This document shows, piece by piece, positions 14,862-33,291 of a DNA stretch of 64,000 nt. The first letter of the stretch is position 1. Each line of letters starts with the position of its first letter. This DNA is from Thermodesulfobacteriota bacterium (GTDB lineage: Bacteria > Desulfobacterota_D > UBA1144 > Nemesobacterales > UBA2774), in NCBI GenBank assembly GCA_965216785.1, contig OZ244197.1, forward strand, positions 1,792,001-1,856,000, written 5' to 3'. Position numbers and translations under genes: made by a program. Under the pieces are notes generated by a model. The model saw only the letters and a list, made by a program, of their open reading frames with translations. It had not been told where the DNA came from and searched no databases.

Positions 14862-14935
14862 AGGTTCTCCCGTTATTCACTTGTCCACAGAATAAACGCT
14901 GATGTGTAAGTGTCGAATATTATTGTAAAAAAGAG

Positions 14936-15009
14936 CGTCCCCGAGAGGATTCGAACCTCTGGCCTCAGGATTAGGAATCCTGCGCTCTATCCTGCTGAGC
15001 TACGGGGAC
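14936..15009 (-). tRNA. tRNA-Arg (anticodon CCT), CCA not encoded
   Basis: Reverse complement GTCCCCGTAGCTCAGCAGGATAGAGCGCAGGATTCCTAATCCTGAGGCCAGAGGTTCGAATCCTCTCGGGGACG folds as a cloverleaf with a GTTCGAAT T-loop. Confidence 0.97.
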
Positions 15010-15015
15010 TGTTTA
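14968..15015 (+). repeat. att direct repeat, left (48 bp; 5' half of tRNA plus 6-nt leader)
   Basis: ggattaggaatcctgcgctctatcctgctgagctacggggactgttta, identical to 33190-33237. Confidence 0.95.
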
Positions 15016-15021
15016 ATGATA

Positions 15022-16125
15022 TCAAGGGGTTATGAGCTTAATATTTCTATTGGTCTCGTCATCAGTGTCCAAATAGGTGACCGTTGGCGAGAATTGTAAG
15101 TGCTCAACAGCTTCCTTTTTGTGTTGGGGTGATGGGTGTATGTATCTTTTAGTAGTGCTTATATCTTTATGTCCCATCAGTTCTTGTATCGTAGCAATAT
15201 CTACACCAGACATTGATAGATTACTCCCGAAACTATGTCTTAGATCATGGAACCTTAAATGTGCTATCCCTGACCTTCTTAGAGCACCCCAGAAGGCCTT
15301 TTTTACCGTCTTGACTGGAATACCATTGGCTCCAGCAAAAAGGTGCTCACAATTGTTATTATTAATAACAGACTTTAGAGTCTTCATCAATAGGGAATTA
15401 ATCGGTACATGCCTAATATCTCCATTCTTGCTTTCTCTGACGAGTATATACCTGTCTCTAAGGTTTATGTCAGAAACCCTTAGATTAAGGATCTCAGACC
15501 TTCTTAACCCTGTATGTATGGCTATCATAAGGATAGGTTTTAGGAATTCAGAAGCTGCTGCATATAGTTTTGCGAACTCATCTATTGAGATCACTCGTAA
15601 TTGTTTAGGCTTTTCAGGAAATAATTTTACTTGAGCAACTGGATTGTTCGATATCATATTCCACTCAATTGCTTTTTTAAACATATGTTTCAGCATTGAA
15701 AGTTCTCTATTAATACTTGCCTTAGCAGGACTTTTACCATTTTTCATTATTTCCTTTTGCCGAGATGATTTATATTTTTCAACATGCCAGTTGGTAATTT
15801 GCTGGATTGTTCTTCCATTGAAATATCGCCTAAGATGTTTGGAGGATGTCATGTCTCTGTCATAAGAGTTTGGTCTTTTGTTCGCTTTTGAATATTCAAG
15901 ATATTGTGTAACCAACCTTTCAAATGGAGTTGGCTTGATAGCACTTTCTAATTTGAATTTACCTTGGGCCATTTCTGCTTTTCTTATAGACAAGGCTTTC
16001 TTAGCATCTTCACGATTAATTCTGGAAGGATCGACACCGGGGATTGAAACAACCTCTCGTTTCCTCTTCCCATTCGGCATATAATAATCTATGTACCATC
16101 TGTTACCTTTTCGATAATATCCCAT
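15022..16125 (-). CDS. Tyrosine recombinase/integrase
   Basis: TGLRRSE, SKNG, HDLRH, MGH, KRY catalytic motifs; N-terminal arm-binding-like segment RWYIDYY..GKRKRE. Confidence 0.95.
   Translation of the reverse strand: MGYYRKGNRWYIDYYMPNGKRKREVVSIPGVDPSRINREDAKKALSIRKAEMAQGKFKLESAIKPTPFERLVTQYLEYSKANKRPNSYDRDMTSSKHLRRYFNGRTIQQITNWHVEKYKSSRQKEIMKNGKSPAKASINRELSMLKHMFKKAIEWNMISNNPVAQVKLFPEKPKQLRVISIDEFAKLYAAASEFLKPILMIAIHTGLRRSEILNLRVSDINLRDRYILVRESKNGDIRHVPINSLLMKTLKSVINNNNCEHLFAGANGIPVKTVKKAFWGALRRSGIAHLRFHDLRHSFGSNLSMSGVDIATIQELMGHKDISTTKRYIHPSPQHKKEAVEHLQFSPTVTYLDTDDETNRNIKLITP
15064..15082 (+). repeat. Putative integrase arm-type sites, left arm (2 x GTGWCC, 12-bp period)
   Basis: agtgtccaaataggtgacc; 17/19 identical to 33054-33072. 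Confidence 0.65.
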
Positions 16126-16408
16126 ACTGCTTTCTCCTCTTGAATTTTTTCTCTAATTCTTCAAGTGGATCTATTTCTTTTTTTTCCTTTCCTACATATA
16201 TACAGTGAGTTTTGTTTTTATAAGTGAAGTACGCATACCAGTACAAACCGTGACCCGAACCCCCTTCTCTACACTTACTACAGCCACATTTCGAGGGCTT
16301 CTGCTGATAAACAACCGCTGGGGGTAAAAGAGTTTCTATATGATTATGGAGCTGTCGAAGTTCATAAACACTAAGTTCCTTTAAAATAGGAGCAATCTTA
16401 TCTAACAT
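16103..16408 (-). CDS. Small Cys/His-rich protein, DUF6788-like
   Basis: KCGCSKC....GHGLYWY..Y.GK motif; overlaps the integrase start by 23 nt. Confidence 0.6.
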   Translation of the reverse strand: MLDKIAPILKELSVYELRQLHNHIETLLPPAVVYQQKPSKCGCSKCREGGSGHGLYWYAYFTYKNKTHCIYVGKEKKEIDPLEELEKKFKRRKQYGILSKR

Positions 16409-16418
16409 TATTAGATAT
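16397..16418 (+). repeat. Palindromic site TATCYAA-N5-TTRGATA, copy at left cargo edge
   Basis: cttatctaacattattagatat; 18/22 identical to 31168-31189, with compensatory changes. Confidence 0.55.
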
Positions 16419-16542
16419 GCTACTACATTTTATCTTCAATTTCAAGACTCCTTTAAAATTGTTCGATAAGCATCATCCTGGAAGAATAATAATTCTTGTT
16501 ATATCATTTAAATGTTAGAGAGTTCTTCTCAGGATGTGAGGA

Positions 16543-18825
16543 ATGATAGAAAAAGTTGTATTTATAAAAAATATAGGGCGTTTTATTAACTGCAATGCGT
16601 ATGGCGACATCCATTTTCGTAAATGTAATCTAGTTTTTGCAGAAAATGGTCGTGGAAAAACTTCTTTTTGTTCTATTTTACGTTCCCTAAGTACTGGTGA
16701 GTCATCTTTTATTCAGGGTCGAAGAACACTCGGAACAGAAGAATTACCTGAAGTCCATTTAAGACTTGATGGGCAGAATTTCATTTTCAGAAATAATGAG
16801 TGGAATAATACTGTTCCCCATATAATGATTTTTGATGATAGTTTCATAAATCAAAATGTTTACTCAGGTGAAAATGTAGATGTAGATCACCGCCAAAACT
16901 TATATGACATAATAATTGGAGAAAGAGGTAAAGAACTTGCATCTGAAATCCGTAATATTGACAGAGATGTGCGAGATAAGAATGGGCGATTAAGCGAGGT
17001 TAGATCGGAGATAAGAGCATTAATACCAGAAGGAAGAATTGGATTTGAGGCTTTTCTGGATTTACCTTCTGATGGTGAAGTTGATAAGCGTATTACAGAG
17101 AAAGATAGGGAATTAGAAGCAGTTAAACAGTCAGCCATATTACAAAGAAGTCCAGTTTTAAAAACTATCATAATACCCAATATGCCTGAGGGTTTCTTTC
17201 CATTTTTGGCTAAAAGTTTTGATGAGATTGCTGAGGATGCTGAAAAGAAGATAGCAAGCCATATCGAAACCCATAAGATGCAAGATAGTGGAAAGGAATG
17301 GTTATTCGAGGGCTACAAACATATAGAAAAAGATAAATGTCCATTTTGTGCACAGGATTTGTCAAATTCAGAACTTATAAAATCTTATACTAGTTTTTTC
17401 AGTGAAGCTTACAATAAACTCAAAGAAGAAATTAAAATCTTGGAAGAAAGAATTCTCGAGGACTTTGGAGAAGTCAGAATTGCATCGTTAGTAACTAGTT
17501 TAGATAAAAACAAAGCTGCACTTGAATTCTGGAGACGTTATTCTGACCTAAAGGAACCTGTTTTTTCTGATAGCGAGAATCTTAAAGACTACATTTCGCA
17601 GGTTAGGGACATTGCTCAAGAATTACTAATCCAAAAATCACAGACACCCATAGAAAAAATTGAGCCTGATCCTGAGCAAAATATGCATTTTACCAAACTA
17701 AGTAGTTATATAGAGGGGGTTGAGACCTATAATAAGGGAGTCACTGAGGCGAACTCAATCATCCAAGAGATGAAGGAAAAAACACGATCAAGAAATCTTC
17801 GTGATGTCGAAGCGGAAATGATTCAATTAAAGTCAGTGAAGAAACGTCATGAAAGTGAAGTTGCAACAATTTGTGAGAATTATCGCCGATTACTTACAGA
17901 AAAACGAGCTCTAGAAACTAGTAAAATAAGGACTAGGGCATTGTTAGATACGCATACAGACGAAGTAATTGAACAATACGAAAATGCTATTAACCGTTAT
18001 TTAGATTATTTTAATGCGGGGTTCCAAATAGCTAGAACTAATTACGACTATATGGGTGGAACGCCTAATGCACATTACAAGATTTTAATTAATAGGACTC
18101 ATGTTGATCCTGGTAACTCATCATCACCTATTAGTGAGCCTTCTTTTAGAAATACATTAAGTTCTGGTGATCGTAGTGCGCTTGCTTTAGCTTTCTTCTT
18201 AGCGCAATTGGAGAATAATCCTGACAAAGCACAGAAGATAGTCATTTTCGATGATCCATTCAATAGTCAGGACGATTTTAGAAAGGGGAACACCGCACAC
18301 CGTATCAGACAGTGCGCACGCGAATGTACTCAGGTAATAGTATTATCTCATGACAAGCATTTTTTAAAACATGTGTGGGATGAACTACCGAGGGAAGAGC
18401 GTAAATCTATCCAATTTTTCCGAGTTTCAGAGGATTGTACAGATATTGCAGAGTGGGATATTGACACTGCTGTTCAAGCACGGTTTAAAGCTGATATTAT
18501 TACCTTATTGAAATATTACGGTAGCAACGAAGGAGATTCGAGAGATGTTGTAACTAAAATACGACCAGTTTTAGAAGGTTTTTGCCGTAATCTCTATCCT
18601 ACGAAGTTTAGTGAAACTGATACATTAGGTGTGATCGTAGAGAAAATACAAGAAGAGGGTTCAGGTTTTCCTCTTCATTCTATCCATGAAGAATTAGAGG
18701 AGATAAATATTTACAGTCGTAGGTATCACCATAGTGATAATCCAGAGTTCGCTACTGAACCGATCAATGATGCAGAGTTGAAAGGATATATTAAAAGAAC
18801 TCTTGCTGTCACTGGATATTTTTAA
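16543..18825 (+). CDS. AAA_13 / RloC-like Rad50-type ABC ATPase, putative anticodon nuclease
   Basis: Walker A AENGRGKT, coiled coil with CPFC zinc hook, LSSGDR signature, Walker B IFDDP, LSHD H-loop, C-terminal domain with NIYSRRYHH. Confidence 0.75.
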   Translation: MIEKVVFIKNIGRFINCNAYGDIHFRKCNLVFAENGRGKTSFCSILRSLSTGESSFIQGRRTLGTEELPEVHLRLDGQNFIFRNNEWNNTVPHIMIFDDSFINQNVYSGENVDVDHRQNLYDIIIGERGKELASEIRNIDRDVRDKNGRLSEVRSEIRALIPEGRIGFEAFLDLPSDGEVDKRITEKDRELEAVKQSAILQRSPVLKTIIIPNMPEGFFPFLAKSFDEIAEDAEKKIASHIETHKMQDSGKEWLFEGYKHIEKDKCPFCAQDLSNSELIKSYTSFFSEAYNKLKEEIKILEERILEDFGEVRIASLVTSLDKNKAALEFWRRYSDLKEPVFSDSENLKDYISQVRDIAQELLIQKSQTPIEKIEPDPEQNMHFTKLSSYIEGVETYNKGVTEANSIIQEMKEKTRSRNLRDVEAEMIQLKSVKKRHESEVATICENYRRLLTEKRALETSKIRTRALLDTHTDEVIEQYENAINRYLDYFNAGFQIARTNYDYMGGTPNAHYKILINRTHVDPGNSSSPISEPSFRNTLSSGDRSALALAFFLAQLENNPDKAQKIVIFDDPFNSQDDFRKGNTAHRIRQCARECTQVIVLSHDKHFLKHVWDELPREERKSIQFFRVSEDCTDIAEWDIDTAVQARFKADIITLLKYYGSNEGDSRDVVTKIRPVLEGFCRNLYPTKFSETDTLGVIVEKIQEEGSGFPLHSIHEELEEINIYSRRYHHSDNPEFATEPINDAELKGYIKRTLAVTGYF

Positions 18826-18914
18826 AAATTGATAATTAAAACCAGTGAGACTTCTAATAATAGTAATTGGCTCATACCGATTAAAACACTCTCACAAGAA
18901 TGTTTGAAAAAATT

Positions 18915-18931
18915 CTTTCACCAGATGAAAG
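18915..18931 (+). repeat. Palindromic island repeat CTTTCA-CCAGA-TGAAAG, copy 1
   Basis: Exact 17-bp match to 20147-20163 and 30988-31004. Confidence 0.85.
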
Positions 18932-19049
18932 TTTCAAGCTGGGTGATCAGAAGCTTGACCGAAATTTAGAAGATGATCTATCTCATGAAAGTGTAGTCTC
19001 AAACGCTACAAAAGTGTAAACTATGTTAACCGGAATTCCTATGAATCTT

Positions 19050-19670: not shown

Positions 19671-19869
19671 TGGTTGTCCTCCTTTTATTTATCGAGAATC
19701 ATGTTTCCATAGCTACCATCATGCATATATTCATTTAGCTAGTTAAATATCCACCGGAATCTAACCAACTTTATAAGTCTTGTTTATAAAAGTCGCATTA
19801 TACTGATTATTGTTATGTATTCAATAGTCTATGGTTTTAGTCACGATTTGACCAGAAGATATTGCCTAT

Positions 19870-20118: not shown

Positions 20119-20145
20119 TGGGTTTCATAGATGTAATGTTGCCCT

Positions 20146-20169
20146 TCTTTCACCAGATGAAAGAATTTC
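20146..20169 (+). repeat. Palindromic island repeat, copy 2
   Basis: tctttcaccagatgaaagaatttc, 24/24 identical to 30987-31010. Confidence 0.85.
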
Positions 20170-20400
20170 CTAGTAGGGATGAGGTTTGAATGAGATTAAA
20201 GCCAGATATCTTCTCCGAAAATCACCCAGCTCCTACTTGATACAGATTCAAAATCCATCGGCTTTATTCAAATACCCTTACGATTCGCTCTCTCCAGCAT
20301 GTCACAGACAACGGAATTTTCGCTTAGGATGTGGGAAATGACAACAATAAGATCAACCGCATGCTCTTATAACATGATTTGATTGCGGCGTTTATAACCA

Positions 20401-20583
20401 AGGTCTCCTAATTCTTTCGGGAGGCTCGATAAAGAGGGGCTGATGAATTATCTGGCAATCCCTTTACACCTGAACGTGCTTACAGTGCTTCCGTTTGGCT
20501 ATTTTGATGAGAGCCTCGGGGGTGGAGATAAATTCAGGAGGAGTCCCGAAGAGGTGTTTCATTTAAATAGGTTCGGGGAGTGA
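20401..20583 (+). pseudogene. Nitroreductase C-terminal remnant
   Basis: Startless frame ...LDKEGLMNYLAIPLHLNVLTVLPFGYFDESLGGGDKFRRSPEEVFHLNRFGE* resembles nitroreductase C-termini; upstream part is degraded. Confidence 0.55.
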
Positions 20584-20713
20584 CTATAGGTGCCGAGGAG
20601 AATTTTTACCGGATGGCCTTTATTTACACCCGGCGAGTGTTTGAGTACGCATCTTTTATTTATACAAGCCACTCTGCTATACTTAAACCAGACTTGCTCA
20701 AAGGATGCAATAA

Positions 20714-21940
20714 TTGAATCCAATTGAAATAATTGTCGATATAGCCAGAGAAGTCGGGATTTCTGGTTTCTTGGATATAGCATTTATTACGATATTTATA
20801 TATGCAATCCTGGTGCTGTTTAAGCAGTCAAAAGCAAGATTTATTATTACAGGCATTCTTATATTAAGTGTAGTATATCTTATAGCCCGACAATTAAATC
20901 TAGCCTTAACTACATCTCTTCTCCAAGCCTTTTTCGCGGTCATCTTGCTTGCTCTTATTATTATCTTCCAGGAAGAAATAAGGCGCCTTTTTGAGCACAT
21001 TGCACTATGGAGCTTAAATCCTAAAGTAAGGTCAAATAAGACTACCAGTCCTGACAATAAGGAAACAGGAATTCTTGTTGATACTCTTTGTGATTTGGCT
21101 CAGCATAAAATTGGAGCGCTCATTGTAATCAAAGGTAAAACGGATTTATCTGGATATTTGGAGGGCGGTGAGATATTAGATGGGAGCATCAGCGAACCTC
21201 TTCTTAAGAGTTTATTTGACCCACATTCGACAGGCCATGATGGAGCAGTGGTAATAAGTAAAGGGAGAATAACATTTTTTGGCACTCACCTTCCCCTATC
21301 AAACAACTTTTCTCAACTTAAAAATAGAGGCACCCGTCACGCGGCTGCACTCGGAATATCGGAAGTTACCGACGCGCTTTGTCTTGTTGTTTCAGAAGAG
21401 AGGGGAACCATATCAATTGCCCATACCGGTGAACTAAAACAAATCGGCTCGGAACAACTAAACATTACTCTTGAGTCTTTTTATGAAGACATAAACCCGC
21501 CTGCTAAAAAAATGCCTCGTTTGGATTTCTCTCGGAATTATAAAGAGAAAATACTAGCATTACTCGCAGCTATAATTCTTTGGTTCGTATTCGTACATGA
21601 ATCAAGAACTGTTTACAGAAGTTTTGAGATACCAATTGAGCATACAACTCTTCCAGCCGGTTTCAAAGTTAAAGAAATAGATCCAGATAAAGTAAGCGTT
21701 ACTTTTTTAGGACCTAGAAGAGAGTTCTATTTCTTTAATGAGAACCAGGTCAGTTTAATACTGAAAATCCCAAATGCCGAACACGGTTTAGAACGCATTG
21801 ATATTTCCGAGTCCAACATTAAGTTTCCAAATGATCTATCTTTAGAAGATGTCGAGCCAAGAACAGTTACTGTACACATTGAAAAAATAGAAGCATTGAA
21901 TAAACAAGGGGATAATTTAAAAAACCAAGATCCTAGGTAG
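20714..21940 (+). CDS. dacA: Diadenylate cyclase CdaA/DacA with fused C-terminal TM and YbbR-like domain
   Basis: 3 N-terminal TMs, FQEEIRR, HDGA, GTRHAAALG, VSEERG; extra TM and YbbR-like tail. Confidence 0.85.
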   Translation: MNPIEIIVDIAREVGISGFLDIAFITIFIYAILVLFKQSKARFIITGILILSVVYLIARQLNLALTTSLLQAFFAVILLALIIIFQEEIRRLFEHIALWSLNPKVRSNKTTSPDNKETGILVDTLCDLAQHKIGALIVIKGKTDLSGYLEGGEILDGSISEPLLKSLFDPHSTGHDGAVVISKGRITFFGTHLPLSNNFSQLKNRGTRHAAALGISEVTDALCLVVSEERGTISIAHTGELKQIGSEQLNITLESFYEDINPPAKKMPRLDFSRNYKEKILALLAAIILWFVFVHESRTVYRSFEIPIEHTTLPAGFKVKEIDPDKVSVTFLGPRREFYFFNENQVSLILKIPNAEHGLERIDISESNIKFPNDLSLEDVEPRTVTVHIEKIEALNKQGDNLKNQDPR

Positions 21941-21954
21941 GGGAGGACACACCT

Positions 21955-23268
21955 ATGGAAACAACTACACCACTTTTGCCCTATGTGCAAAAATTCTTTG
22001 AATACGATCCTTTGACTGCAACCCACGCACTTGAAACTATGGATGAGGAGGAGGCAATCAAGATACTCACCATTCTTCCGGCTTCTATGTCCTCAAGTAT
22101 CTTTCGAAGATTGCCCACCGAACTAGCTGCGTCGCTGCTTGAAAAGGTCCCGCCCGAGACATTTATAGAAATTGCGGAAAAAATGGAGCCCCAGCAGGGC
22201 GCTACAATACTCATGCACATAACTGATGAAATAAGAACCAGAATGCTGACACACTTGCCGGATAAGACCAAGATGGCAATACAAGAGATACTGACTTATC
22301 CGAAGGGAAGTGTGGCTAGTATTATGACCACTAAATACGTAGCATTCCATAAAGATATTAGAATTTCAGATGTAGTTGAAAACATCCGTCAAAGAGCTCA
22401 TTCCAAAGCTCCGCCAGCGAGTTATGTATATGTTATAGACAATGAAAATCACCTGATTGGTGTCCTCAATATGCGTGATCTCATAATTGCAGATTCCGAT
22501 TCAAAGCTTGAATCAATAATGATAAAAAATCCGTATTGTATAAACGCTTTTACAGAGAGGGAGGTTGCGGCTAATGAGCTCGCCGACCGAAAATATTTTG
22601 CAGCTCCCGTAGTCGATAATGAAAACCACCTTTTGGGCATAGTAAAAGCCGATCAATTAATCAGCCAAGCTCAAGAAGACGCAAGTGCAGACCTTCAGAA
22701 AATGTTCGGAGTATCTCCAAGTGAGCATGTATTCTCATCGATTAAATTTTCTCTTACTAAACGACTTCCCTGGCTTCATATTAACTTGGTTACCGCTTTT
22801 ATGGCCGGGTCGGTTATTGCTATATTTGAGGGGATCATTGCTAAGATTACTGTTTTAGCCATATTTCTCCCTATAATTGCTGGCCAGGGCGGTAACGCTG
22901 GTTCCCAGTCATTGGCTGTAGTGATGAGGGGGCTTGTAATGAGGGAAGTTTCACCAAGAGAGACAAAGCAATTGGTGATGAAAGAGGCTAAACTCGGTCT
23001 TATAAATGGCGTAGTAATAGGATTTGTTACTGCGCTTATTGCTTGGATGTGGAAAGGTAATCCATACCTTGGACTCGTGATTGGACTTGCTATGATAGTG
23101 AACTTAGTGGCCGCAGGTGTTTCAGGAGCAATTATTCCCCTTACTCTCAAAGCATTCGGACAAGACCCCGCTCAGTCTTCAGCTATCTTACTCACCACTG
23201 TGACCGATATTATAGGATTCTTTTCATTTCTCGGGTTTGCTATGATATTCCAGAGTTTATTAATATAG
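21955..23268 (+). CDS. mgtE: Magnesium transporter MgtE
   Basis: MgtE_N, CBS pair, RLPWL, GGNAGSQ, DPA..S..LTTVTD. Confidence 0.93.
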   Translation: METTTPLLPYVQKFFEYDPLTATHALETMDEEEAIKILTILPASMSSSIFRRLPTELAASLLEKVPPETFIEIAEKMEPQQGATILMHITDEIRTRMLTHLPDKTKMAIQEILTYPKGSVASIMTTKYVAFHKDIRISDVVENIRQRAHSKAPPASYVYVIDNENHLIGVLNMRDLIIADSDSKLESIMIKNPYCINAFTEREVAANELADRKYFAAPVVDNENHLLGIVKADQLISQAQEDASADLQKMFGVSPSEHVFSSIKFSLTKRLPWLHINLVTAFMAGSVIAIFEGIIAKITVLAIFLPIIAGQGGNAGSQSLAVVMRGLVMREVSPRETKQLVMKEAKLGLINGVVIGFVTALIAWMWKGNPYLGLVIGLAMIVNLVAAGVSGAIIPLTLKAFGQDPAQSSAILLTTVTDIIGFFSFLGFAMIFQSLLI

Positions 23269-23319
23269 CGTTGACCGATAAACTAACAAATTAGTTCGCT
23301 CTGCTGAGATTGCGTTCTA

Positions 23320-24342
23320 TTAACTATTCGGATTTTTCTTTTTAGCCAACTCCTGCATGTCTTCGTGTATATCTGATTCATCAACTATTTCTTCTCCGAT
23401 TAAAGACTCTATTACATCTTCTAAGCTGACTACTCCGATAAATCTGTTATTTCCATCCCTGACACAAAAGAGGTGGCGGCGAGTATCTATAAATTTATCC
23501 AGAAGCTCGTGTAAAGGCATCCCTCCATGAACAAAGTCTGGTGATACCATCAAATTGTTAATCTGCACATCGCTTTTTCCCTTAAGTAAAGCAAAATCAA
23601 TATCACGTCTATTAACTATTCCTATTATATTATTTTTGTCATTTTCGCCATACACCGGCATTCTACTGAAAATCCAGTTTTCAGAATCGATATCGATATC
23701 CTTGATAGCTATATTTCCCGGCAAACTGTAAACAACGGAACGAGGAGTCATAATGTCGTGAACAATAGACCTGTCAAGGAGCAATGCATTTATTACCATG
23801 CGGGCTTCATGAGACATTATGGCACGACTATGACGACCAAGTAATGCTAAGCTAATTATATCCTCTTCTGTAGGGAAATTTATGTGACTCTCTTTTCCCC
23901 AGACTCTTGTTATAACGACAGTAATTTTTACGAAGGGCCAGAGCGCTTTAACAAAAAAGGTAATAACACCAGCCAACCGGGGTGCGATTGAGCTTGCAAA
24001 AGTCACTCCTAATGATTTAGGGAGTATTTCACTCAAAAAAAGAACGGCTCCTGTGAATACCCCCGAAAATATACCAAGCCACATATCACCATAGTGTTTG
24101 GCGATTAATCCGGCTGACCATGTTGCCCCTATTATATTGATAGCGGTATTAAGAGTGAGGATTGCTGCAATCGGCTCATCAATTTTATCCCGCAGCTTAG
24201 CAAGCTTAACGCCGCCCGGATCACCACTTCGTTTTAAGGATTCGATGCGGCCCCTCGGTATTGCATATAGAGCTGCCTCCATAAGCGAACAAAAAAAATA
24301 ACCCAGGAGTGTAACCCCTACTATCACGGCTATAGCAAACAT
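23320..24342 (-). CDS. CNNM/CorC (DUF21 + CBS) putative Mg2+ exporter, paralog A
   Basis: FCSLMEAA, AILTLNT, SEILPK, MTPR, SRMPVY, GVVSLEDVIE.LIGEEIVDE. Confidence 0.88.
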   Translation of the reverse strand: MFAIAVIVGVTLLGYFFCSLMEAALYAIPRGRIESLKRSGDPGGVKLAKLRDKIDEPIAAILTLNTAINIIGATWSAGLIAKHYGDMWLGIFSGVFTGAVLFLSEILPKSLGVTFASSIAPRLAGVITFFVKALWPFVKITVVITRVWGKESHINFPTEEDIISLALLGRHSRAIMSHEARMVINALLLDRSIVHDIMTPRSVVYSLPGNIAIKDIDIDSENWIFSRMPVYGENDKNNIIGIVNRRDIDFALLKGKSDVQINNLMVSPDFVHGGMPLHELLDKFIDTRRHLFCVRDGNNRFIGVVSLEDVIESLIGEEIVDESDIHEDMQELAKKKNPNS

Positions 24343-24378
24343 AAGCTCCTTTCCTTATAACACTTAGAGATATGATTA

Positions 24379-25401
24379 TTAACCCTTAGGACCTTTCCTT
24401 TTTGCTAATTCTTGCATGTCTTCATGAATATCGAGCTCGTCCACTATCTCTTCGCCTATTAGGGACTCGATAATGTCCTCCAAAGTGACAATACCCATAT
24501 ACTCATCCTTTGAGTTCTTCACACAGAATAGATGTCTTCTTGTTAAGATAAAACGCTTAAGCAGCTCGTTCAGATGCATATCCTCGGGCACGATGTCAGG
24601 AGGTATCATAACACTCCTTAATGTTTTGTTACCCTCACCTCTCATTAGAGCCATATAGACATCGCTTCTTAAAGCCACGCCTACTATATTGTCAGGTTGC
24701 CCTTCTGTATAAACAGGAATTCTGCTGTAATGCCAGTAGTCCGAATCCAGGTCTATATTCCCCAGTATTGTGCTGTCCGGCATCTCCATTACTACGGATT
24801 TGGGTGTGTAGATCTCCTTAACCCTCAACTCGTCCAGCCTGAGTGCGTTTGTTACAATTTCCGCCTCCTCGGGCAGTATTCCGCCACCATGATGCGTAAG
24901 CTCGGCAAGGCTCTTTAAATCATCTTCCGTTGGGAAGTTCAGGTGAGAATTCTTGCCCCACAGGCTTGTAATAAACACGCTCAGTTTTACAAAAGGCCAT
25001 AGTATTTTGATGAGAAAATCAATCAGTATGGACAAGCGTGGAGCGAGGGCGTTTGCATAAGTTACTCCCAGGGACTTTGGAATAATTTCGCTGAATATCA
25101 AAACTCCCCCTGTAAATAGGCCGGAAAAAACTCCGAGCCAAGTATCCCCGTAATACCTGGCAACCAGAGAGCCCGCAATGGACGCCCCGATTACGTTTAC
25201 AGCAGTGTTGAGAGTTAGTATAGCTGCTATAGGCTGATCAATATTATCTCTTAGTCTGGCCAGCCTTATCCCGCCCGGGTCACCTTCCCGCTTCAAAGAC
25301 TCGATCCTGCTCCGGGGAATGGAATATATTGCAGCTTCCATAAGCGAGCAGAAAAACGATCCCAATAAGCTGATTCCTGTTATTATTGCAATAGCGTACA
25401 T
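24379..25401 (-). CDS. CNNM/CorC (DUF21 + CBS) putative Mg2+ exporter, paralog B
   Basis: Same motifs and same 340-aa length as the neighbouring paralog. Confidence 0.88.
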   Translation of the reverse strand: MYAIAIITGISLLGSFFCSLMEAAIYSIPRSRIESLKREGDPGGIRLARLRDNIDQPIAAILTLNTAVNVIGASIAGSLVARYYGDTWLGVFSGLFTGGVLIFSEIIPKSLGVTYANALAPRLSILIDFLIKILWPFVKLSVFITSLWGKNSHLNFPTEDDLKSLAELTHHGGGILPEEAEIVTNALRLDELRVKEIYTPKSVVMEMPDSTILGNIDLDSDYWHYSRIPVYTEGQPDNIVGVALRSDVYMALMRGEGNKTLRSVMIPPDIVPEDMHLNELLKRFILTRRHLFCVKNSKDEYMGIVTLEDIIESLIGEEIVDELDIHEDMQELAKRKGPKG

Positions 25402-25439
25402 AGATCAATTCCTTCCCTTTAGGCAACTAAGTGTAGCAC

Positions 25440-26396
25440 TCAGTTATCGGCTGTGTCCTCTATACCGACATTGATGAGAGCGTCTCCCCTATTTACAATC
25501 GGTAGACTTCTGATACCGATTATATAACCGTCCGTGCTAGTTCTTATTTTATGTTCAGTCTCGCCAAAGGGGTCGGTAATGCTCGCGATGATTTGGCTTT
25601 TCTTGACTTTCTCACCATATTCTACAAAAGCTCTATAAATTCCCGAGTTCCTTGCACGTATCCATGAAGTACTTCTAATCTCTACAGAGCTCTTTCGTTT
25701 TTGTGGATTTACTTTCATCATTTTTAAATGCTTCATGAGCCGCTTGATTCCCTCCATCCCTTCCTTAATTGCAAGCTCATCGAAGCGGAGTGATTCCCCG
25801 CCTTCGAAAACAAGAATAGTTTTCCCCTCTTTATGCGCCGATTTTCTCAATGAATCGTCTCTTAGTTTAGAATTTATTATAAAAGGTGGAGCGAAGGCAC
25901 GGGCCAGAGTTAAATTGTCCGGCGCATCAAACGTACATCTCACCTGTGGATAATTATTATTTGCCCCTCCAGTGTGCAGATCGACTCCATAATCAATTAC
26001 AGGCATTATTTTACTCATCAAAGTATGAGCTACTCGTGAAGCGAGTGAGCCGGTTTTTGTACCCGGAAAACTCCTGTTAAGATCCCTGCCGTCCGGAAGA
26101 TACCGGGACTTGTTTAAAAAGCCATAAACATTAACGATGGGCACAGCGACTACCATTCCTGCGGATGGTATTACTGACTGGTTAACTATCAAACGTCTGA
26201 TTGTTTCAATACCATTTAGCTCATCTCCATGTATACCTGCCATAATAAGAAGACTGGGCCCTTCCTTTTTACCTCTGAAAACAAATACAGGCAAGTCTAT
26301 CATTGTATGCGTCGGCAGTTTTGCGACGTTCAAGTTTATTTGAGCGTTCTGCCCAGGTGCTATTTCTTCACCATTTATTACTATGGTTTCTGGCAT
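25440..26396 (-). CDS. Succinylglutamate desuccinylase/aspartoacylase (AstE/AspA, M14) family
   Basis: AGIHGDELNG, DLNRSFPG, DLHTG; C-terminal biotinyl-like domain. Confidence 0.9.
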   Translation of the reverse strand: MPETIVINGEEIAPGQNAQINLNVAKLPTHTMIDLPVFVFRGKKEGPSLLIMAGIHGDELNGIETIRRLIVNQSVIPSAGMVVAVPIVNVYGFLNKSRYLPDGRDLNRSFPGTKTGSLASRVAHTLMSKIMPVIDYGVDLHTGGANNNYPQVRCTFDAPDNLTLARAFAPPFIINSKLRDDSLRKSAHKEGKTILVFEGGESLRFDELAIKEGMEGIKRLMKHLKMMKVNPQKRKSSVEIRSTSWIRARNSGIYRAFVEYGEKVKKSQIIASITDPFGETEHKIRTSTDGYIIGIRSLPIVNRGDALINVGIEDTADN

Positions 26397-27305
26397 TTAT
26401 GATTTTACTCTATCTTTTATTAGTCTTTTGCGGTGAGCGTTTTCTTCTACAAACTCAATGATTTTTGATGCAACATCAATACCACTGGCTTTTTCAATAC
26501 CCTCAAGACCAGGGGATGAATTGACCTCCATAATCTTGGGGCCCGTACTGGATTGCAGCATGTCTACCCCGGCAACGTTAAGCCCGAGTAGCTTAGCTGC
26601 TTTAATAGCGGTCGAGCGTTCGCTTCTGCTAAGTTTGATTTCATTAGCGCTTCCACCACGGTGTATGTTTGAGCGGAACTCCCCTTCAGCGCCCTGTCTT
26701 TTCATAGCCCCTACGACTTTCCCACCTACAACGAACGCCCTTATGTCAGCTCCCTTAGATTCTTTTATAAACTCCTGAATGAGGATGTTAGCCTGGATAC
26801 CATAAAAGGCTTCCAAAACGGATTTTGCAGCTTTTTTGGTTTCTGTAAGTACGACTCCGATACCCTGTGTGCCTTGAAGGAGCTTTATTACTAGTGGAGC
26901 TCCCCCAACTTCCTCTATCAGGTGGTTTATATCGTCAGGGTCCGATGCAAAAGCGGTAACCGGCATTCCGAGTCCCGCGCGTGAAAGTATTTGCATACTG
27001 CGAAGTTTATCTCTTGACCTCACAATCGCCTGTGACTCGTTTACCGGGAACACATGCATCATTTCAAACTGTCTGACAACAGCAGTACCATAGAAGGTTC
27101 TTGAAGCGCCAATCCTCGGAATAACAGCATCGATCCCTGTGAGTTTTTCCCCATCGATATATATCTCTGGATTCTTTTTCTCTATCACCATGTAGCATTT
27201 CAGAAAATCTAACACTTGAACATCGTGCCCTCTCTCCTGAGCAGCCTCTACGAGTCTTTTAGTAGAATAAAGATTCTCGTTTCTCGACAATATGGCTATC
27301 TTCAT
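26397..27305 (-). CDS. rimK: RimK alpha-L-glutamate ligase (ATP-grasp)
   Basis: [52 protein letters not shown]. Confidence 0.95.
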
Positions 27306-27766
27306 TTTTGTCTCCCTTTGTTTTTATGCTTATATGATAGATTCGATTTAGTTACATCGACAACAAACCCCTCTTTCAATAATTTTCTGCCTAATAGTAT
27401 GGGTTTTCCCATTTTTGAGCGGTCACTTAAAGAAATCTCTATATCATAATTTTCCCCGAAAAGCCTTATGGAAGTCTTAATTATGCATCTTTTCTCCGAT
27501 ATACCAAACGAACTTTTGACATTCCTTATTGCGTGTAGCTTTACTCTGAACCTCTTTTCGTCATAATCTGGATGTGAGGGATCGAGAAGATTGAAAGTTA
27601 CATATTTTTGCCCGTCCTTCTCTTTTACTTTGATATTGTGGCAGTGTATTGACGATGTGTAGGCACCTGTGTCTATTTTTGCGTCAATGTCATAAAGCCT
27701 CATTCTTGGAAAGTCAACTTTATCTCTTCTGCCAATTAAGCGTTTTTCTGTTCTATTTTTAGACAT
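27302..27766 (-). CDS. RimK-associated retropepsin-like protease (RimB-like / 'ATP-dependent Zn protease')
   Basis: [25 protein letters not shown]; 4-nt overlap with rimK. Confidence 0.85.
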
Positions 27767-27825
27767 CTATATGCTTGATATTATTACACAGATATATCAT
27801 TATGTAACTAGAGGACGGTGCATTA

Positions 27826-29622
27826 ATGTTTGATTTTGTGACACAGCTGGACGATTTTTTCCTAGCACTATATGTTCATCTAACTTCCAATATAAAAGAC
27901 GAGTTAGCAGCTGCCGCAGTTCTTCTCGTAGTTTTTGTGGTAACGCTTCTTGTGCATAAAAAAGCAATCGGGTTTCTCCTACGCACCCAATGGAAGTTCA
28001 AGCCGTATGTACTGTTTCTCATAGCTCTCGTCTTTCCGCTTATTTATATTCTTATCGTAATTGGGGCGGCTCCACATTTGAAAGGTGGATTGACTCTAAT
28101 ATTATTCTCCTCTCTTGCTTATTTCTATCTTGGCTTTTACCTAATAAAGAACCTGCTTGAACCGCTCAGGATAAACAGCGTACCATGGAAGATTATTTCA
28201 TATGTATTATTATTATTGACCGTAATTTTCAACGCATTAGTTGATCTAAACACGCAGTTCTTTAAAAGCCCCGATTTACAAGAAGTATTCTCCATATTTT
28301 TCAAAGTCTCTGCAATACTGCTTATTTACATGTTTTTACTCAGAGCACTTAGGTTTTTAACTGAATTTCTTCCAGAGCGGCAAATAGTTGCGAAACATAT
28401 TATAGAGAGCCTCATAAGCGTAGTGTCGGTTCTATATATTATCCTCGCAGCGCTCTGGCTCTTTAAATTAGTCGGGTTCGCATCATCGCTATTTGTCGGC
28501 GGCGTGGCTGTATTTATTGCCGTAGTGGGCTATGGGCTTCTCAAATCTTTTGCTGCTAGTTATCTGGGGCCGAAAACAGATGGAAATCCTTCATATAGTG
28601 CGTTGCTAAAGAGTATTGAATCTTTCCTCATTCTGCTGCTGATCTATGTTCTATACATTATATTCAAACTCTCTTTTAACCTGGAGCAGGTTCATCACTT
28701 CCTTTCCGAGGCGTATCTAGTAAATACAGGCGTGATTGTTATATCTTTATTCTCTCTAGTTTCTGGGCTCTTCATGTTCTTCTTTTTACTTTCAATGATG
28801 GGGATCTTAAAACAAATAGTTTATTTCTACAACATGAAGCTCGGCAGGGAGCTCGAAGCGGCTTCGCTCAGGTCTTTGGTATCTAATCTCGGCCTGTTGA
28901 TCGTAATAATGATTGCCCTTTCCGGGATCGGCCTTACATGGAAAGCATTACTCCCCATAGCGGGTGCTCTGGGAATAGGTATTGGGATTGGGCTCCAAAC
29001 TATTATGAATAACTATCTTAGCGGCTTCATACTCTTATTCAGTAAGCGCCTTAAGATTGGAGACATTATAGAATTTGACGGTAATGCGGGTAGAGCTATT
29101 GGGAATACATTAGAGACCATATATGGTCGTGTCGTAAGTATTGATACATTTTCAAGCGTAGTAACGACTACTGACGGCATCGAAATAGTTGTCCCCAACT
29201 CACAATTTATAGATAAGCAGATGGTAAATTATTCACTTTCTGACTATACAATCAGGGTTAGGATTCCTTTCGGTGTCTCCTATTCTGCAGATCCCAATAC
29301 AGTAAAAGATATACTTTTAAAAGTAGCCAATGAAAATACTCAAATACTCAGGTCTCCCGAGCCCGGCCTTTGGTTTACGGAATATGCCGATAGCGCCCTG
29401 GTGTTCTATCTGCTTTGCTGGGTTAATATCAAGGACATTTGGAAAATAAAACCTGTCATTAGCGATATTTACTTCAAGAGCTGGTATGAGCTGAAAAAAG
29501 CCGGTGTAGTCATACCATTCCCGCAAAGAGATGTGTGGTTTAAAAATAATCTTAAGGTCGAGATAGAGAAAGATCTCGGAGAGCACTTTCAAAAGAAACC
29601 GGGCGACTGGGGAGGTGAATAA
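27826..29622 (+). CDS. MscS-family mechanosensitive channel with extended N-terminal TM region
   Basis: GALGIGIGIGLQTIMNNYLSG, VPNS, GVSY, IPFPQRDV. Confidence 0.9.
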   Translation: MFDFVTQLDDFFLALYVHLTSNIKDELAAAAVLLVVFVVTLLVHKKAIGFLLRTQWKFKPYVLFLIALVFPLIYILIVIGAAPHLKGGLTLILFSSLAYFYLGFYLIKNLLEPLRINSVPWKIISYVLLLLTVIFNALVDLNTQFFKSPDLQEVFSIFFKVSAILLIYMFLLRALRFLTEFLPERQIVAKHIIESLISVVSVLYIILAALWLFKLVGFASSLFVGGVAVFIAVVGYGLLKSFAASYLGPKTDGNPSYSALLKSIESFLILLLIYVLYIIFKLSFNLEQVHHFLSEAYLVNTGVIVISLFSLVSGLFMFFFLLSMMGILKQIVYFYNMKLGRELEAASLRSLVSNLGLLIVIMIALSGIGLTWKALLPIAGALGIGIGIGLQTIMNNYLSGFILLFSKRLKIGDIIEFDGNAGRAIGNTLETIYGRVVSIDTFSSVVTTTDGIEIVVPNSQFIDKQMVNYSLSDYTIRVRIPFGVSYSADPNTVKDILLKVANENTQILRSPEPGLWFTEYADSALVFYLLCWVNIKDIWKIKPVISDIYFKSWYELKKAGVVIPFPQRDVWFKNNLKVEIEKDLGEHFQKKPGDWGGE

Positions 29623-30063
29623 TGTCTTCGAGGCTAGTAAAAAAGACATCAGCCAAAAAGGCCTACGACCGGGCTCACTAATTTACATTGGCGAACAAAA
29701 AGTCGATAAAGTCAGAATCAGGGTAATAGATTACGATGAGAAGAACCTAATTGAGTATGAATATGAAAGTATTGAAGAAACCTTTTCATTCAAAGATAAC
29801 AATTCTGTTTCATGGATAAATATAGACGGTCTACACGATGTGGAAGTTCTCAGAAAATTAGGCGAAAATTTCGGAATTCATAATCTCGTTCTTGAAGATA
29901 TTTTAAACACTGACTTCCCTGACTTTTATAGCCGGCCTTTACGGAATGAATTTTGATAATATGCCGGAGCTACATAAGAATTGGGGCTACCCTATAGTTA
30001 TTATCGTTATAGTAGTTGTAGCAGTAGGAATGATATATTATTTTAAGAAAAAAATGGTTTTAG
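29622..30063 (+). pseudogene. corA: CorA Mg2+ transporter pseudogene (internal deletion plus frameshifts)
   Basis: N-terminus MSSRLVKK../GLRPGSLIYIGE..WINIDGLHD..LEDILNT joined at ~29913, in another frame, to [21 protein letters not shown]; frameshifts in A-runs at ~29655 and ~30050. Confidence 0.85.
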
Positions 30064-30114
30064 TTGTTGTTTCTTAAATCGATAGTTATCGGTCAAGGAC
30101 TGAATGGGGACACT

Positions 30115-30960
30115 ATGAAAATTGCTGTAACAGCAGCGAGTGGGCATTTGGGTGCCGAGATAGTCAAGGCAACTGTTCAGCTTGTTGGTAAAGGTAACGT
30201 TGTCGGGCTTGCACGCACGCCTTCCAAAGCCGAACATCTTGGTATTGAAATTCGGAGGGGTGATTACGGTTCCAAGAAAGATTTAATGAAAACGCTGCGA
30301 CACGTGGACACCCTCTTGTTGGTATCCGGTATGGATGATCCTATAAAGCGCATTGATCAACACCGTAATGTAATTTATGCTGCCAAGTATGCTGGTGTGA
30401 AGAAGATTGTCTATACCAGCATTCAAGGTGCTGAGAAGCATACGGCTTTTTCTCCAATAATTCAAAGCAATCGCCAAACTGAGTGTGATTTACATCTCTG
30501 CGGATTAGATTGGGTAATTGGGCGCAATGGAATTTATATTGAATCAGACATTGAGTGTATAGCAACCTACAAGGAGAAGGGAGAAATCGCAAATTGTGCT
30601 GGCGATGGAAGATGTGGTTACACCACCCGGCCCGAATTAGCGTATGCCTATGCCCGAATCTTGACCGAATCCAAGCACAATGGTAGAACATATAATCTGC
30701 ATGGAGAACCGATTACACAGTATCAGCTAGCAGCTTATCTAAACATGACGTTTGGCACCAACTTGACATATAGACCTATGACAGTAGAAGAATATCGCCA
30801 AGATCGTATTACGGAATTGGGTGAATCAATGGGTAATATTATAACTGGCATCTATCAGGGAATTCGCGAAGGAGCATTGTTTAACATCAGCCATTATACT
30901 GACGCAACTTCCAGATCCCATCAAAGTTGGGAAAATTATTTCAATGCTCTGAAAATATAA
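30115..30960 (+). CDS. NmrA/atypical SDR NAD(P)H-binding oxidoreductase
   Basis: MKIAVTAASGHLG, GVKKIVYTS, RNGIY; ATG at 30115. Confidence 0.85.
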   Translation: MKIAVTAASGHLGAEIVKATVQLVGKGNVVGLARTPSKAEHLGIEIRRGDYGSKKDLMKTLRHVDTLLLVSGMDDPIKRIDQHRNVIYAAKYAGVKKIVYTSIQGAEKHTAFSPIIQSNRQTECDLHLCGLDWVIGRNGIYIESDIECIATYKEKGEIANCAGDGRCGYTTRPELAYAYARILTESKHNGRTYNLHGEPITQYQLAAYLNMTFGTNLTYRPMTVEEYRQDRITELGESMGNIITGIYQGIREGALFNISHYTDATSRSHQSWENYFNALKI

Positions 30961-30986
30961 GAATAATACTTTATATTTTTGTGTAC

Positions 30987-31010
30987 TCTTTCACCAGATG
31001 AAAGAATTTC
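30987..31010 (+). repeat. Palindromic island repeat, copy 3
   Basis: Identical to 20146-20169. Confidence 0.85.
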
Positions 31011-31167
31011 AGATGTATCCGCTCTTATTTCTTAGTAATTCGTATTTTATATAGACTGTGAACTTTGTGAGCCTATGTATAGTTATACAGGAACATCATT
31101 CAAGCTAGATATTATGTAAAATGCTTGCAACACAAAACGAGTATAGGGATCGCCACTTATACTCATT

Positions 31168-31189
31168 CTTATCCAATAGTATTGGATAT
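31168..31189 (+). repeat. Palindromic site TATCYAA-N5-TTRGATA, copy abutting the rep stop codon
   Basis: tatccaata-g-tattggata perfect palindrome at 31170-31188; second hairpin gagtata..tatactc at 31139-31164. Confidence 0.55.
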
Positions 31190-31674
31190 TATTTTCGGGT
31201 TCTATTAACTTCAGGGAAAACTAATTGCCCCTTATTAGTTTTGGGTGAGTAAAAATCAATCTCACTACCAAATCTAATGCTCTTAGTCAAATAAAATTTC
31301 GCTCCTAATTCAGGATCGTAATCATAAATACGAGCAAAACCATTTATGCTTTCATCTTCGTTTAAATTGAAGTTTTTTTCCCATAAATACATGTATTTCA
31401 GCTTATCTAATTTCCATACATCTCCGCCCATTAAAAAATGAAAGTGAATGACATTCCTTTTTTGATTTTCTAATACATAAACCCATGTTACGCCTAAATT
31501 CTTTTCTCTATATCTTCTGCCGTGAAGTTGCTGGTTTATTTTTTTTATGAAAGTGAAGAATCTTCTCTTAGCTATTTCAGGGTGAATTTGTTGCTGAAAT
31601 GTAAGTGTTCCATACCAATGGAAGGGTTCTAGCATAGATATTAGCTCAATCCAACCTAACTCTATAGGTCGCAA
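31189..31674 (-). CDS. Minimal HUH endonuclease / rolling-circle replication initiator-like protein
   Basis: Motif I GTLTF, motif II IHFHFLM, motif III YLTK in the canonical order. Confidence 0.7.
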   Translation of the reverse strand: MRPIELGWIELISMLEPFHWYGTLTFQQQIHPEIAKRRFFTFIKKINQQLHGRRYREKNLGVTWVYVLENQKRNVIHFHFLMGGDVWKLDKLKYMYLWEKNFNLNEDESINGFARIYDYDPELGAKFYLTKSIRFGSEIDFYSPKTNKGQLVFPEVNRTRK

Positions 31675-31693
31675 ATATGACTCATTAATATAA

Positions 31694-31885
31694 TTAATTA
31701 TAGCTCACCTCCACTCTATGTTTTTCAAGGAAATTCTCGAATTCAGATTGGTTGATTAGTATCTTTTTTTGGATTCGGTAGTGGGCAATCATTTTGTAAC
31801 GAATCCAATAATAAATCGTTGTTACATTGATTCCATATAATGCTGATAAGTCTTTGGGGGAGAGTTTCTTATCTTTGCTCTTCAT
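31694..31885 (-). CDS. Excisionase-like HTH_17 DNA-binding protein
   Basis: LSPKDLSALYGINVTTIYYWIR..I..YRI..KILI; 63 aa. Confidence 0.8.
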   Translation of the reverse strand: MKSKDKKLSPKDLSALYGINVTTIYYWIRYKMIAHYRIQKKILINQSEFENFLEKHRVEVSYN

Positions 31886-32063
31886 CTATCTCCACCTCAG
31901 CTAATTCACAGAGTCGACGTATTTTTTGCTCAAATATATTTAGCTCATCTGTTATCAATGAATAGAATGATAGAGCTTCACCTTTGTCTGCTGAAACAAA
32001 CGCTATGGTCTCTATGCCTTTAGGACTTAGGGTTAAAGCTACGCGACCTCTATTGAATCCCAT
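31869..32063 (-). CDS. Hypothetical protein
   Basis: AAGGAG RBS; co-oriented with and overlapping the xis-like gene. Confidence 0.5.
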   Translation of the reverse strand: MGFNRGRVALTLSPKGIETIAFVSADKGEALSFYSLITDELNIFEQKIRRLCELAEVEIDEEQR

Positions 32064-32128
32064 ATTTAACTCCTTAAATACTCTTCATGTATATAAGGGA
32101 AAAAACAGAGGGTTTTTAAAGGGGGGTT

Positions 32129-33034
32129 TTATAATTCGTTCATTTCTTTCTTTAAGTTCTTTTTAGCAGCTACTTCTAATTGACTTATTCTAGTTACAGA
32201 TATCTTTAATTCCTTCGCAGCTTCTGTCTTGTTAAAACCTTTGAAATACAACAATTCTATCACTTTTCGCTGTTGATCTGTAAGTTTCATTAATTGATTT
32301 TTTAGGTATTCCAGATCATTTATCAGAAAGATATCTTCCTCTAGATGAAAAGTATTATCATCAAACTCTTCAGGAATACCTTTCTGGAGTTCACCAAGTT
32401 GATATCTGATGCTGTCTTTGACTCGGAATGGTAACTTTTCTAAGTCTTCCAGGAGAGAAAAGAGCATTGAATCCTTACTTGTATCAAATGCATTTCTTAG
32501 AGTACTCTCAAATTCTTCTTGTAATAGTTCTTCTGGTAAGTCTTGTATATCTTTATGAAAAAGAAACTTTACTTCTCGTTCATGCTTTATATAGACACCA
32601 TATCTCTTGGATACTTTGGCAGTTGCATATCTGAGTTCATCCAATAATTGTCTATCGTCGTCAAGTATTCGTCTGAATCTGGGATAACCGTATTTTGGAT
32701 ACTCCTTTTCGAGGAACTTTAATATATTTCTCCATCGAGTGATGTATTCAGGAGTGCACATCACCCGTATAGCAAACATGGTATCCTTAGAAGAGTCAGT
32801 TATATCTTGGACGTAATATTCATTTTGTGTGCCGAAATATTGATCAATGATTTCAGCAGCTATATCTAATATTTTTCCATTCAGAGATTTATTTGAATCG
32901 ATACACTTATCCTTTGAAATGACTACAGCCTTTTCATTTTCGAATACCCTAATCTCAAATTTATCCAAAGTTTGGGCAATAGGTTCCGCTCTTTTCCGAA
33001 AATTCTTAACTTCAAGCTCACTTGCAGTAGGCAT
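32129..33034 (-). CDS. Protein with C-terminal sigma-70 region 4 HTH
   Basis: LTDQQRKVIELLYFKGFNKTEAAKELKISVTRISQLEVAAKKNLK; N-terminal part unrecognised. Confidence 0.7.
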   Translation of the reverse strand: MPTASELEVKNFRKRAEPIAQTLDKFEIRVFENEKAVVISKDKCIDSNKSLNGKILDIAAEIIDQYFGTQNEYYVQDITDSSKDTMFAIRVMCTPEYITRWRNILKFLEKEYPKYGYPRFRRILDDDRQLLDELRYATAKVSKRYGVYIKHEREVKFLFHKDIQDLPEELLQEEFESTLRNAFDTSKDSMLFSLLEDLEKLPFRVKDSIRYQLGELQKGIPEEFDDNTFHLEEDIFLINDLEYLKNQLMKLTDQQRKVIELLYFKGFNKTEAAKELKISVTRISQLEVAAKKNLKKEMNEL

Positions 33035-33042
33035 TGTATTAA

Positions 33043-33072
33043 GTGTTCCTTTTAGTGACCAAATAGGTGTCC
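33043..33072 (+). repeat. Putative integrase arm-type sites, right arm (3 copies, 12-bp period)
   Basis: gtgttc (33043), gtgacc (33055), gtgtcc (33067). Confidence 0.65.
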
Positions 33073-33189
33073 TTTCTGGTTATAAATACTCTACATATTC
33101 TAAATATACAAGTGTATTTGTAGGTGGAAATGTTTAATGTTCTTAGATAAATACTATGATTTGAGATACTTAGTAGTATACGTTCAATC

Positions 33190-33237
33190 GGATTAGGAAT
33201 CCTGCGCTCTATCCTGCTGAGCTACGGGGACTGTTTA
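33190..33237 (+). repeat. att direct repeat, right: orphan 5' fragment of tRNA-Arg on the minus strand
   Basis: 48/48 identical to 14968-15015; lacks T-arm and 3' acceptor strand. Confidence 0.95.
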
Positions 33238-33291
33238 GTTCTTCTAGAGGCTTATATTAATAACAGAATTTAGCGGCTTCATCAATAGCTT

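Follow-up and report, generated by a model that had tools for sequence, protein, structure and literature searches.

In a 64,000-nucleotide stretch of the genome of a Thermodesulfobacteriota bacterium (contig OZ244197.1, positions 1,792,001 to 1,856,000; hereafter the window), a tyrosine-integrase island of 18,222 bp lies between the gene for tRNA-Arg(CCT) and the DNA that once stood upstream of it. It inserted in reversed orientation into this sole tRNA-Arg(CCT) gene, with crossover likely in the anticodon loop, and we consider it likely that the restored tRNA is transcribed from a near copy of the native tRNA promoter embedded in the integrase gene (int). The target is present as a single copy among the 45 tRNA and tmRNA genes of the 3.1-Mb genome, and AGG makes up 30% of the arginine codons in 1237 long open reading frames (ORFs) of that genome, a usage that would favor keeping this tRNA on. 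An earlier note on the same DNA had recognized the island and had argued that the tRNA now depends on island DNA, which our analysis supports; it missed the main point, the copy of the native promoter inside the integrase gene.

The island is bounded by a perfect 48-bp direct repeat (Table 1), the presumed attachment (att) site. On the minus strand, the repeat consists of a 6-nt leader followed by tRNA positions 1–42, and it ends 3 nt past the 7-nt anticodon loop. The full tRNA lies at the integrase end, 12 nt beyond the integrase stop codon, and only a 5′ fragment is left at the distal end (33190–33237), so the repeat finder and ARAGORN confirm the layout that the earlier note had described. 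The integrase ORF is whole, its stop at 15022 falling outside the att repeat, which ends at 15015. The arrangement thus has the features by which the Islander class is defined: a tyrosine integrase inside, a full tRNA and an upstream 5′ fragment in the same orientation, and a size of 2–200 kb.

Empty sites bear out the claim that the host upstream DNA lies at the 33237 side, as well as the expectation of an intact tRNA in island-free relatives. In the same-genus genome G002, OmdA/VOC-like DNA, the promoter-like motif, the intact tRNA, and an fn3 gene are contiguous without a gap. In run X5, a near-identical strain from another study with 6 listed differences from the window over ~1.6 kb, a contig jumps from 14967 to 33190, leaving out exactly 18,222 bp. 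The 48-mer forms a contig of its own in runs X2 and X4, at about twice the depth of its flanks. Both island ends are therefore fixed, and the host upstream DNA is at the 33237 side. That the repeat is an assembly artefact, or that the host upstream DNA is on the integrase side, is virtually impossible: nothing was found in favor of either, and the exact empty site in X5, the doubled depth of the 48-mer, and the G002 synteny rule them out. No attP joint of an excised circle was found in the contigs of four runs, and contigs drop rare forms. Elsewhere in the genus (G001, locus L034), the tRNA comes after an Fe-ADH gene and has another promoter-like site, and ~190 nt downstream there is a degenerate copy resembling the tRNA (73%); this locus is possibly a decayed island that left its promoter behind.

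The candidate native promoter is found where the earlier note had placed it, at 33285–33257, and its motif is conserved upstream of tRNA-Arg(CCT) across the family. It stands 54 nt before the tRNA 5′ end and, since the insertion, is directed into the island. A repeat search pairs it with codons 245–256 of the integrase gene (15360–15393 against 33255–33288), where 31 of 34 bases are identical, and where the 17-nt spacer ends in an extended −10 TG, 381 nt upstream of the restored tRNA. Both copies match at 4 of 6 positions in the −35 and at 4 of 6 in the −10, have the extended TG, and lack the last T of the −10, with the position conserved in relatives. A profile was made from 11 native promoters found in other genera; scanned across the genome, it gives the integrase copy 38.5 bits and the native site 36.1, and the next best of 6.2 million positions reaches 14.2. 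A degenerate pattern search gave 25 matches in 21 of the 101 genomes of the order, 22 of them 49–77 nt before the 5′ end of tRNA-Arg(CCT), two cut by contig ends, and one being the integrase copy. In genome G018, three contigs (C3, C8, and C15) each carry a copy of the native motif followed by tRNA-Arg(CCT) sequence.

The amino acid sequence explains part of the likeness, but not all of it. Synonymous sampling with the amino acids held fixed gives ~25 of 34 matches on average, and at least 31 of 34 in only 44 of 200,000 draws (P ~2 × 10^−4). In five close homologs, a single codon is kept at 6 of 9 conserved residues inside the site compared with 17 of 100 outside it (p = 0.003, for a window chosen after the fact). 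Ranked by synonymous identity, the 12-codon window comes 6th of 190 in five Arg-CCT integrases, with only the arm-site region higher, 4th of 223 in 30 Arg-CCG integrases, and 1st of 351 in three Arg-TCT integrases; in 13 homologs of the opposite, 3′-type geometry it comes 268th of 269. These comparisons show that the putative promoter is selectively conserved in the integrase codons.

As to its origin, the integrase copy matches the native promoters of its own genus best (28–32 of 34 bases, versus 20–29 for other genera), which hints at short-patch transfer. The motif L-K-S-V also occurs in homologs outside the clade and suggests that the integrase helix was predisposed. The likeness between the two copies ends at the promoter core on both sides, and the native copies contain stop codons in the integrase frame. 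Both observations make it less likely that a remnant of the integrase gene gave rise to the native promoter. The copy may have arisen by short-patch transfer or by convergence, and copying could have run in either direction; there may even be exchange of sequence between the integrase copy and the host tRNA promoters of this family.

Several observations weigh against a promoter at this position. A consensus sigma-70 scan calls neither copy, because the −10 lacks its final, nearly invariant T; the generic promoter score of the window's copy is not significant (p = 0.11); and the protein sequence accounts for some of the likeness, L-K-S-V being present outside the clade as well. Generic promoter and terminator scans have yields at or below chance here. 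The non-canonical −10, the unusually specific conservation of flanking bases in the native copies, and the ~25 of 34 matches given by the amino acids alone would also suit a reading in which some protein of the host or the island binds the 34-mer, or in which the 34-mer reflects protein and codon constraint plus chance. We regard that reading as quite unlikely, because it does not fit the fixed distance of 49–77 nt to the tRNA, the fixed 17-nt spacing, the low probability of the match given the amino acids, or the textbook TTGACA or TAAAAT that other clades have at the same codons.

To see how the site is distributed, integrase homologs from genomes and metagenomes were labelled by the tRNA adjoining the integrase stop codon. 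Of 133 records, 4 with duplicated names were dropped and the remainder dereplicated at 95% to 111, comprising 60 with a co-oriented tRNA (5′-type), 24 with a convergent tRNA (3′-type), 24 unassigned, and 3 at contig ends. The 5′ geometry is thus shared among homologs, a point that the earlier note had suggested checking. TTGA at codon 246 with TA 16–17 nt later occurs in 36 of the 60 5′-type homologs, in none of the 24 3′-type or 24 unassigned ones, and in 2 of the 3 at contig ends. In the Arg-CCG clade the equivalent codons mostly hold a perfect TTGACA, and TAAAAT is also seen among other clades. A tree built without the promoter codons places the carriers in three clades and has 9 changes of geometry, of which strong branches force 7. 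Displaced fragments are seen in five distinct homolog loci (L043, L047/L175, L178, L195, and the Ser island of the genome studied here). Further 5′ fragments of tRNA-Arg(CCT) are present in six relatives (L035, L036, L038, L235, L239, and L243), which indicates that the 5′ geometry recurs at this tRNA across the order.

The same comparison also supplies arguments on the other side. Carriers form only three clades, and 30 of the 5′-type rows belong to a single Arg-CCG clade. An independent-pairs test, which was never in the wrong direction, had 7 pairs and a median p of 1 and is underpowered; the tree-corrected test used 63 of the 84 labelled rows, leaving out 21 Arg-CCG rows. The 5′ label mostly means that a co-oriented tRNA stands just after the integrase, and no displaced fragment is found within the 7.6–10 kb of upstream DNA of L154, L173, L051, L059, and L050/L191. 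At L050/L191, the integrase ORF extends through the entire co-oriented tRNA-Pro(GGG) gene. Finally, 24 of the 60 5′-type homologs are without the site, and just 4 of these 24 have a promoter score beyond codon shuffles (p ≤ 0.05), compared with 1 of 23 3′-type homologs. Other solutions can be seen in some elements. L058 has a near-perfect TTGAAA-17-TG-TATATT inside the integrase gene, 369 nt before the tRNA, and L053 an intergenic TTGACA-16-TATCTT promoter-like site; both are probably independent replacement promoters. In G005 (L031, 7902–8027 and 18425–18550), which is 5′-type with an integrase divergent from the tRNA, ~87 nt of upstream DNA fall within the repeat and hold a TTGCGA-17-TAAAAT promoter-like site. 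Elements such as G005 and L053 seem to meet the same promoter need by other means.

The ends of displaced fragments bear on the recombination step. In homologous islands they lie at tRNA positions 39–43, and in G005 identity stops exactly at the last base of the anticodon loop; these ends fit a crossover in the loop, as the earlier note had proposed. We infer a 7-nt overlap region that coincides with the anticodon loop, which a 3-bp inverted repeat borders. Beside the core lies an exact match to the site consensus for integration host factor (IHF), and arm-type-like double sites in the same orientation occur on both sides, the one in the integrase 3′ end being kept in 7 of 7 close homolog loci examined. 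With its loop overlap, IHF match, and flanking arm-like sites, the att region appears lambda-like. Recombination of this kind, using an IHF site and an arm site at either flank, would swap the DNA upstream of the loop.

RNA polymerase would then start near 15355, inside the integrase gene, rather than at ~15010 as the earlier note had predicted, and would produce a pre-tRNA with a ~345-nt leader that is subsequently trimmed. An internal start would make the tRNA without making full-length integrase. Alternatively, the tRNA could be read through mainly from a promoter of the operon formed by the 101-aa ORF and the integrase, as in archaeal pTN3-like elements, with the internal site as an auxiliary. 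The gap between the integrase stop and the tRNA is just 12 nt, with no minus-strand terminator called in it, and a weak 9/12 promoter match stands before the 101-aa ORF at 16445–16417. However, such matches are at chance level (8 found, 7.7 expected), and read-through leaves the codon-level conservation of a host-promoter copy unexplained, so we think it improbable that this is the main source of the tRNA.

On the other side of the island, the host promoter would face the genes for the sigma-70 region 4 (sigma-r4) protein, the likely excisionase (xis), and the Rep-like protein (rep), and in the excised circle the near-identical integrase-borne promoter would feed them. The earlier note had the host promoter firing into this module. 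Such read-through is possible, as no minus-strand terminator is called before the sigma-r4 gene, but it may matter little: in a sister island of the same genome (Table 1) the homologs of sigma-r4, the 64-aa ORF, and xis are located ~15 kb into the element, with no tRNA promoter nearby. Just before the module here there are also two weak matches to the promoter consensus. One could propose that the internal promoter serves to transcribe sigma-r4/xis/rep through attP in the circle, that the host promoter takes over upon integration as a state-dependent switch, and that feeding the tRNA is a by-product. No terminator is called and no stable fold is found (z = 0.92) after the 5′ fragment, and promoter switching of such a kind has been shown for ICEKp1 (PMC13023037). 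Yet 3′-type homologs would need the same circle promoter and none of the 24 has the site, including the sister island, whose integrase is 52–54% identical and which has the same arm motif and module; moreover, promoters that agree at 31 of 34 positions are poorly suited to act as a switch. We therefore judge this explanation unlikely.

The preferred reading is instead that of a replacement promoter serving the tRNA. Host and island promoter sequences have indeed been exchanged, as the earlier note held, but little change in output is expected when the two are so alike: with a near-identical promoter on each side, the exchange would be close to neutral for both the tRNA and sigma-r4/xis/rep. 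Because of the promoter copy, its conservation, and its absence from the 3′-type homologs, the swap is likely a like-for-like replacement and not a regulatory switch.

The genome holds three more displaced 5′ fragments, of 43, 67, and 48 bp, at tRNA genes for Ser, Leu, and Pro (Table 1), making four in all; the 5′ geometry is not rare in this lineage. No copy of a native promoter was found within 1.2 kb upstream of these three tRNAs (best local scores 20–24, compared with 53), so promoter mimicry is not general. The sister island, which has the 3′ geometry, carries an integrase without an internal promoter-like site.

The integrase has R208, K233, H293, R296, H319, and Y328, the residues of the catalytic set; its nearest named homolog is L054, labelled Thermodesulfobacteriales (76% over residues 257–360), and it lies 17 kb from the host promoter, at the opposite island end. 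No relaxase, conjugation, or virion genes were detected among the island ORFs scanned against Pfam. The cargo includes a block encoding a CdaA-type diadenylate cyclase, MgtE, two CNNM proteins, an AstE-like protein, RimK, a Zn protease, MscS, and an NmrA-like protein. Perfect 24-bp direct repeats with an internal palindrome (20146–20169 and 30987–31010), found nowhere else in the genome, bracket these 10.8 kb, and a third palindromic core of the repeat lies at 18914; the block may represent a nested cassette that has an insertion site of its own. Outside the island, three tandem copies of a 45-nt unit, 80–87% alike, occupy positions 61856–61990 of the window.

Table 1. Features of the island, its flanks, and related loci (window coordinates unless a G000:C1 position is given)
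Feature	Coordinates	Strand	Basis or remark
Restored tRNA-Arg(CCT)	14935..15009	minus	ARAGORN; sole tRNA in window
48-bp att repeat, integrase-side copy	14968..15015	minus	repeat finder; perfect direct repeat
IHF-site consensus, exact match beside core	15020..15032	no strand	sequence match
Tyrosine integrase, 367 aa, intact	15022..16125	minus	PF00589 E=2e-37 and SAM-like domain
Arm-type-like double site in integrase 3′ end	15065..15082	minus	one of three pattern matches in genome
Native promoter copy in integrase codons 245–256	15360..15393	minus	−35-like TTGATG 15390–15385, −10-like TATTAA 15367–15362
101-aa ORF, weak DUF6788	16103..16408	minus	overlaps integrase start
AAA_13 ATPase, candidate defence cargo	16543..18825	plus	PADLOC PDC-S06 match E=1.5e-72
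Cargo block between perfect 24-bp direct repeats	20146..31010	no strand	repeat finder, Pfam
Rep-like ORF	31189..31674	minus	PF23343 33.5 bits vs cut-off 27.8; RepSA below cut-off
HTH_17 protein, likely excisionase	31694..31885	minus	
64-aa ORF, no Pfam match	31869..32063	minus	homolog in sister island
301-aa protein, C-terminal sigma-70 region 4 HTH	32129..33034	minus	Pfam
Distal arm-type-like double site	33055..33072	minus	orientation same as integrase-side site
48-bp att repeat, distal copy (displaced 5′ tRNA fragment)	33190..33237	minus	repeat finder
Native tRNA-Arg(CCT) promoter-like motif	33255..33288	minus	TTGATG 33285–33280, TATTAA 33262–33257
Host VOC/glyoxalase gene (flank)	33292..33648	minus	Pfam scan, G002 comparison
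tRNA-Pro(CGG) 5′-fragment locus	G000:C1 109803-116018		integrase directly behind fragment
tRNA-Leu(CAA) 5′-fragment locus	G000:C1 1322017-1330340		no integrase seen
tRNA-Ser(TGA) 5′-fragment locus	G000:C1 1598983-1618944		
Sister island	G000:C1 77157-97320		3′ geometry; integrase 52–54% identical; same arm motif

Mobile elements that bring a promoter to their target have reportedly been seen before. SXT/R391 elements are said to supply a new 5′ end and promoter to prfC, a protein gene, and myxophage Mx8, at tandem tRNA-Asp genes, is said to have attP inside int; it may also have a promoter within int for the downstream tRNA, which would make it a partial precedent. Neither SXT nor Mx8 is known to show host-promoter mimicry.

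The island clearly resembles the 5′-fragment class of the Islander survey (PMC4383910), with its tyrosine integrase, full tRNA with an upstream 5′ fragment in the same orientation, and probably anticodon-centred site. That class is a known minority, as the earlier note had said in calling the geometry rare: 159 of 3919 islands there have a displaced 5′ fragment, and the first case is credited to Zhao and Williams 2002, as cited in PMC6563490 and PMC1635311. The novelty was nevertheless overstated, because both the geometry and an element-supplied promoter are already in print. Unlike the Islander report, whose text never mentions "promoter", the present case points to a likely replacement promoter located in the integrase ORF and copying that of the host. 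According to a review and a related paper (PMC8371274, PMC5495485), bacterial tRNAs retain their promoter in all but very few cases, whereas tRNAs targeted by archaeal pTN3-like integrases use the integrase promoter, and the host tRNA promoter may fire into element DNA. As here, pTN3-like integrases target the tRNA 5′ half and cut the tRNA from its promoter, an element promoter being used in its place; there, however, attP lies within the integrase gene, which integration splits, and the promoter used is that of the integrase, whereas here the integrase is whole and the promoter-like site internal. In ICEKp1, ICEclc, and ICEEc1, as described in PMC13023037, att recombination likewise exchanges the host tRNA promoter for an element promoter, but in those elements the tRNA retains its promoter and the regulated gene is the integrase. 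In the present island the tRNA is cut off from its promoter, the two promoters are nearly the same, and the ORFs scanned include no conjugation genes. Our literature search returned no description of an intact integrase ORF that contains a copy of a host promoter, a result that does not establish absence from print. The island belongs to the known 5′-fragment class, and its new part is a putative dual-coded replacement promoter, well supported by sequence comparison, that mimics the promoter of the host.

Tentatively, and with slightly more doubt than belief, we extend this to the family as a whole. A single integrase family would have flipped between 3′ and 5′ orientation many times (at least 7 strong-branch changes), and its 5′ lineages would repeatedly have written a promoter into the same integrase helix, here as a near letter-for-letter copy of the host's. 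The dual-coded promoter would license the reversal and leave transcription undisturbed by integration, and it would be lost from 3′ lineages by selection, as there it would fire antisense into the tRNA. Apart from this extension, the island itself would offer a concrete and testable answer to how rare 5′-fragment islands keep their target tRNA expressed, in this genome the only dedicated AGG decoder. It would also be a clean case of dual coding, with a promoter in recombinase codons and sister lineages as natural controls, and it suggests that a promoter inside int should be sought both by island finders and in att-site engineering.

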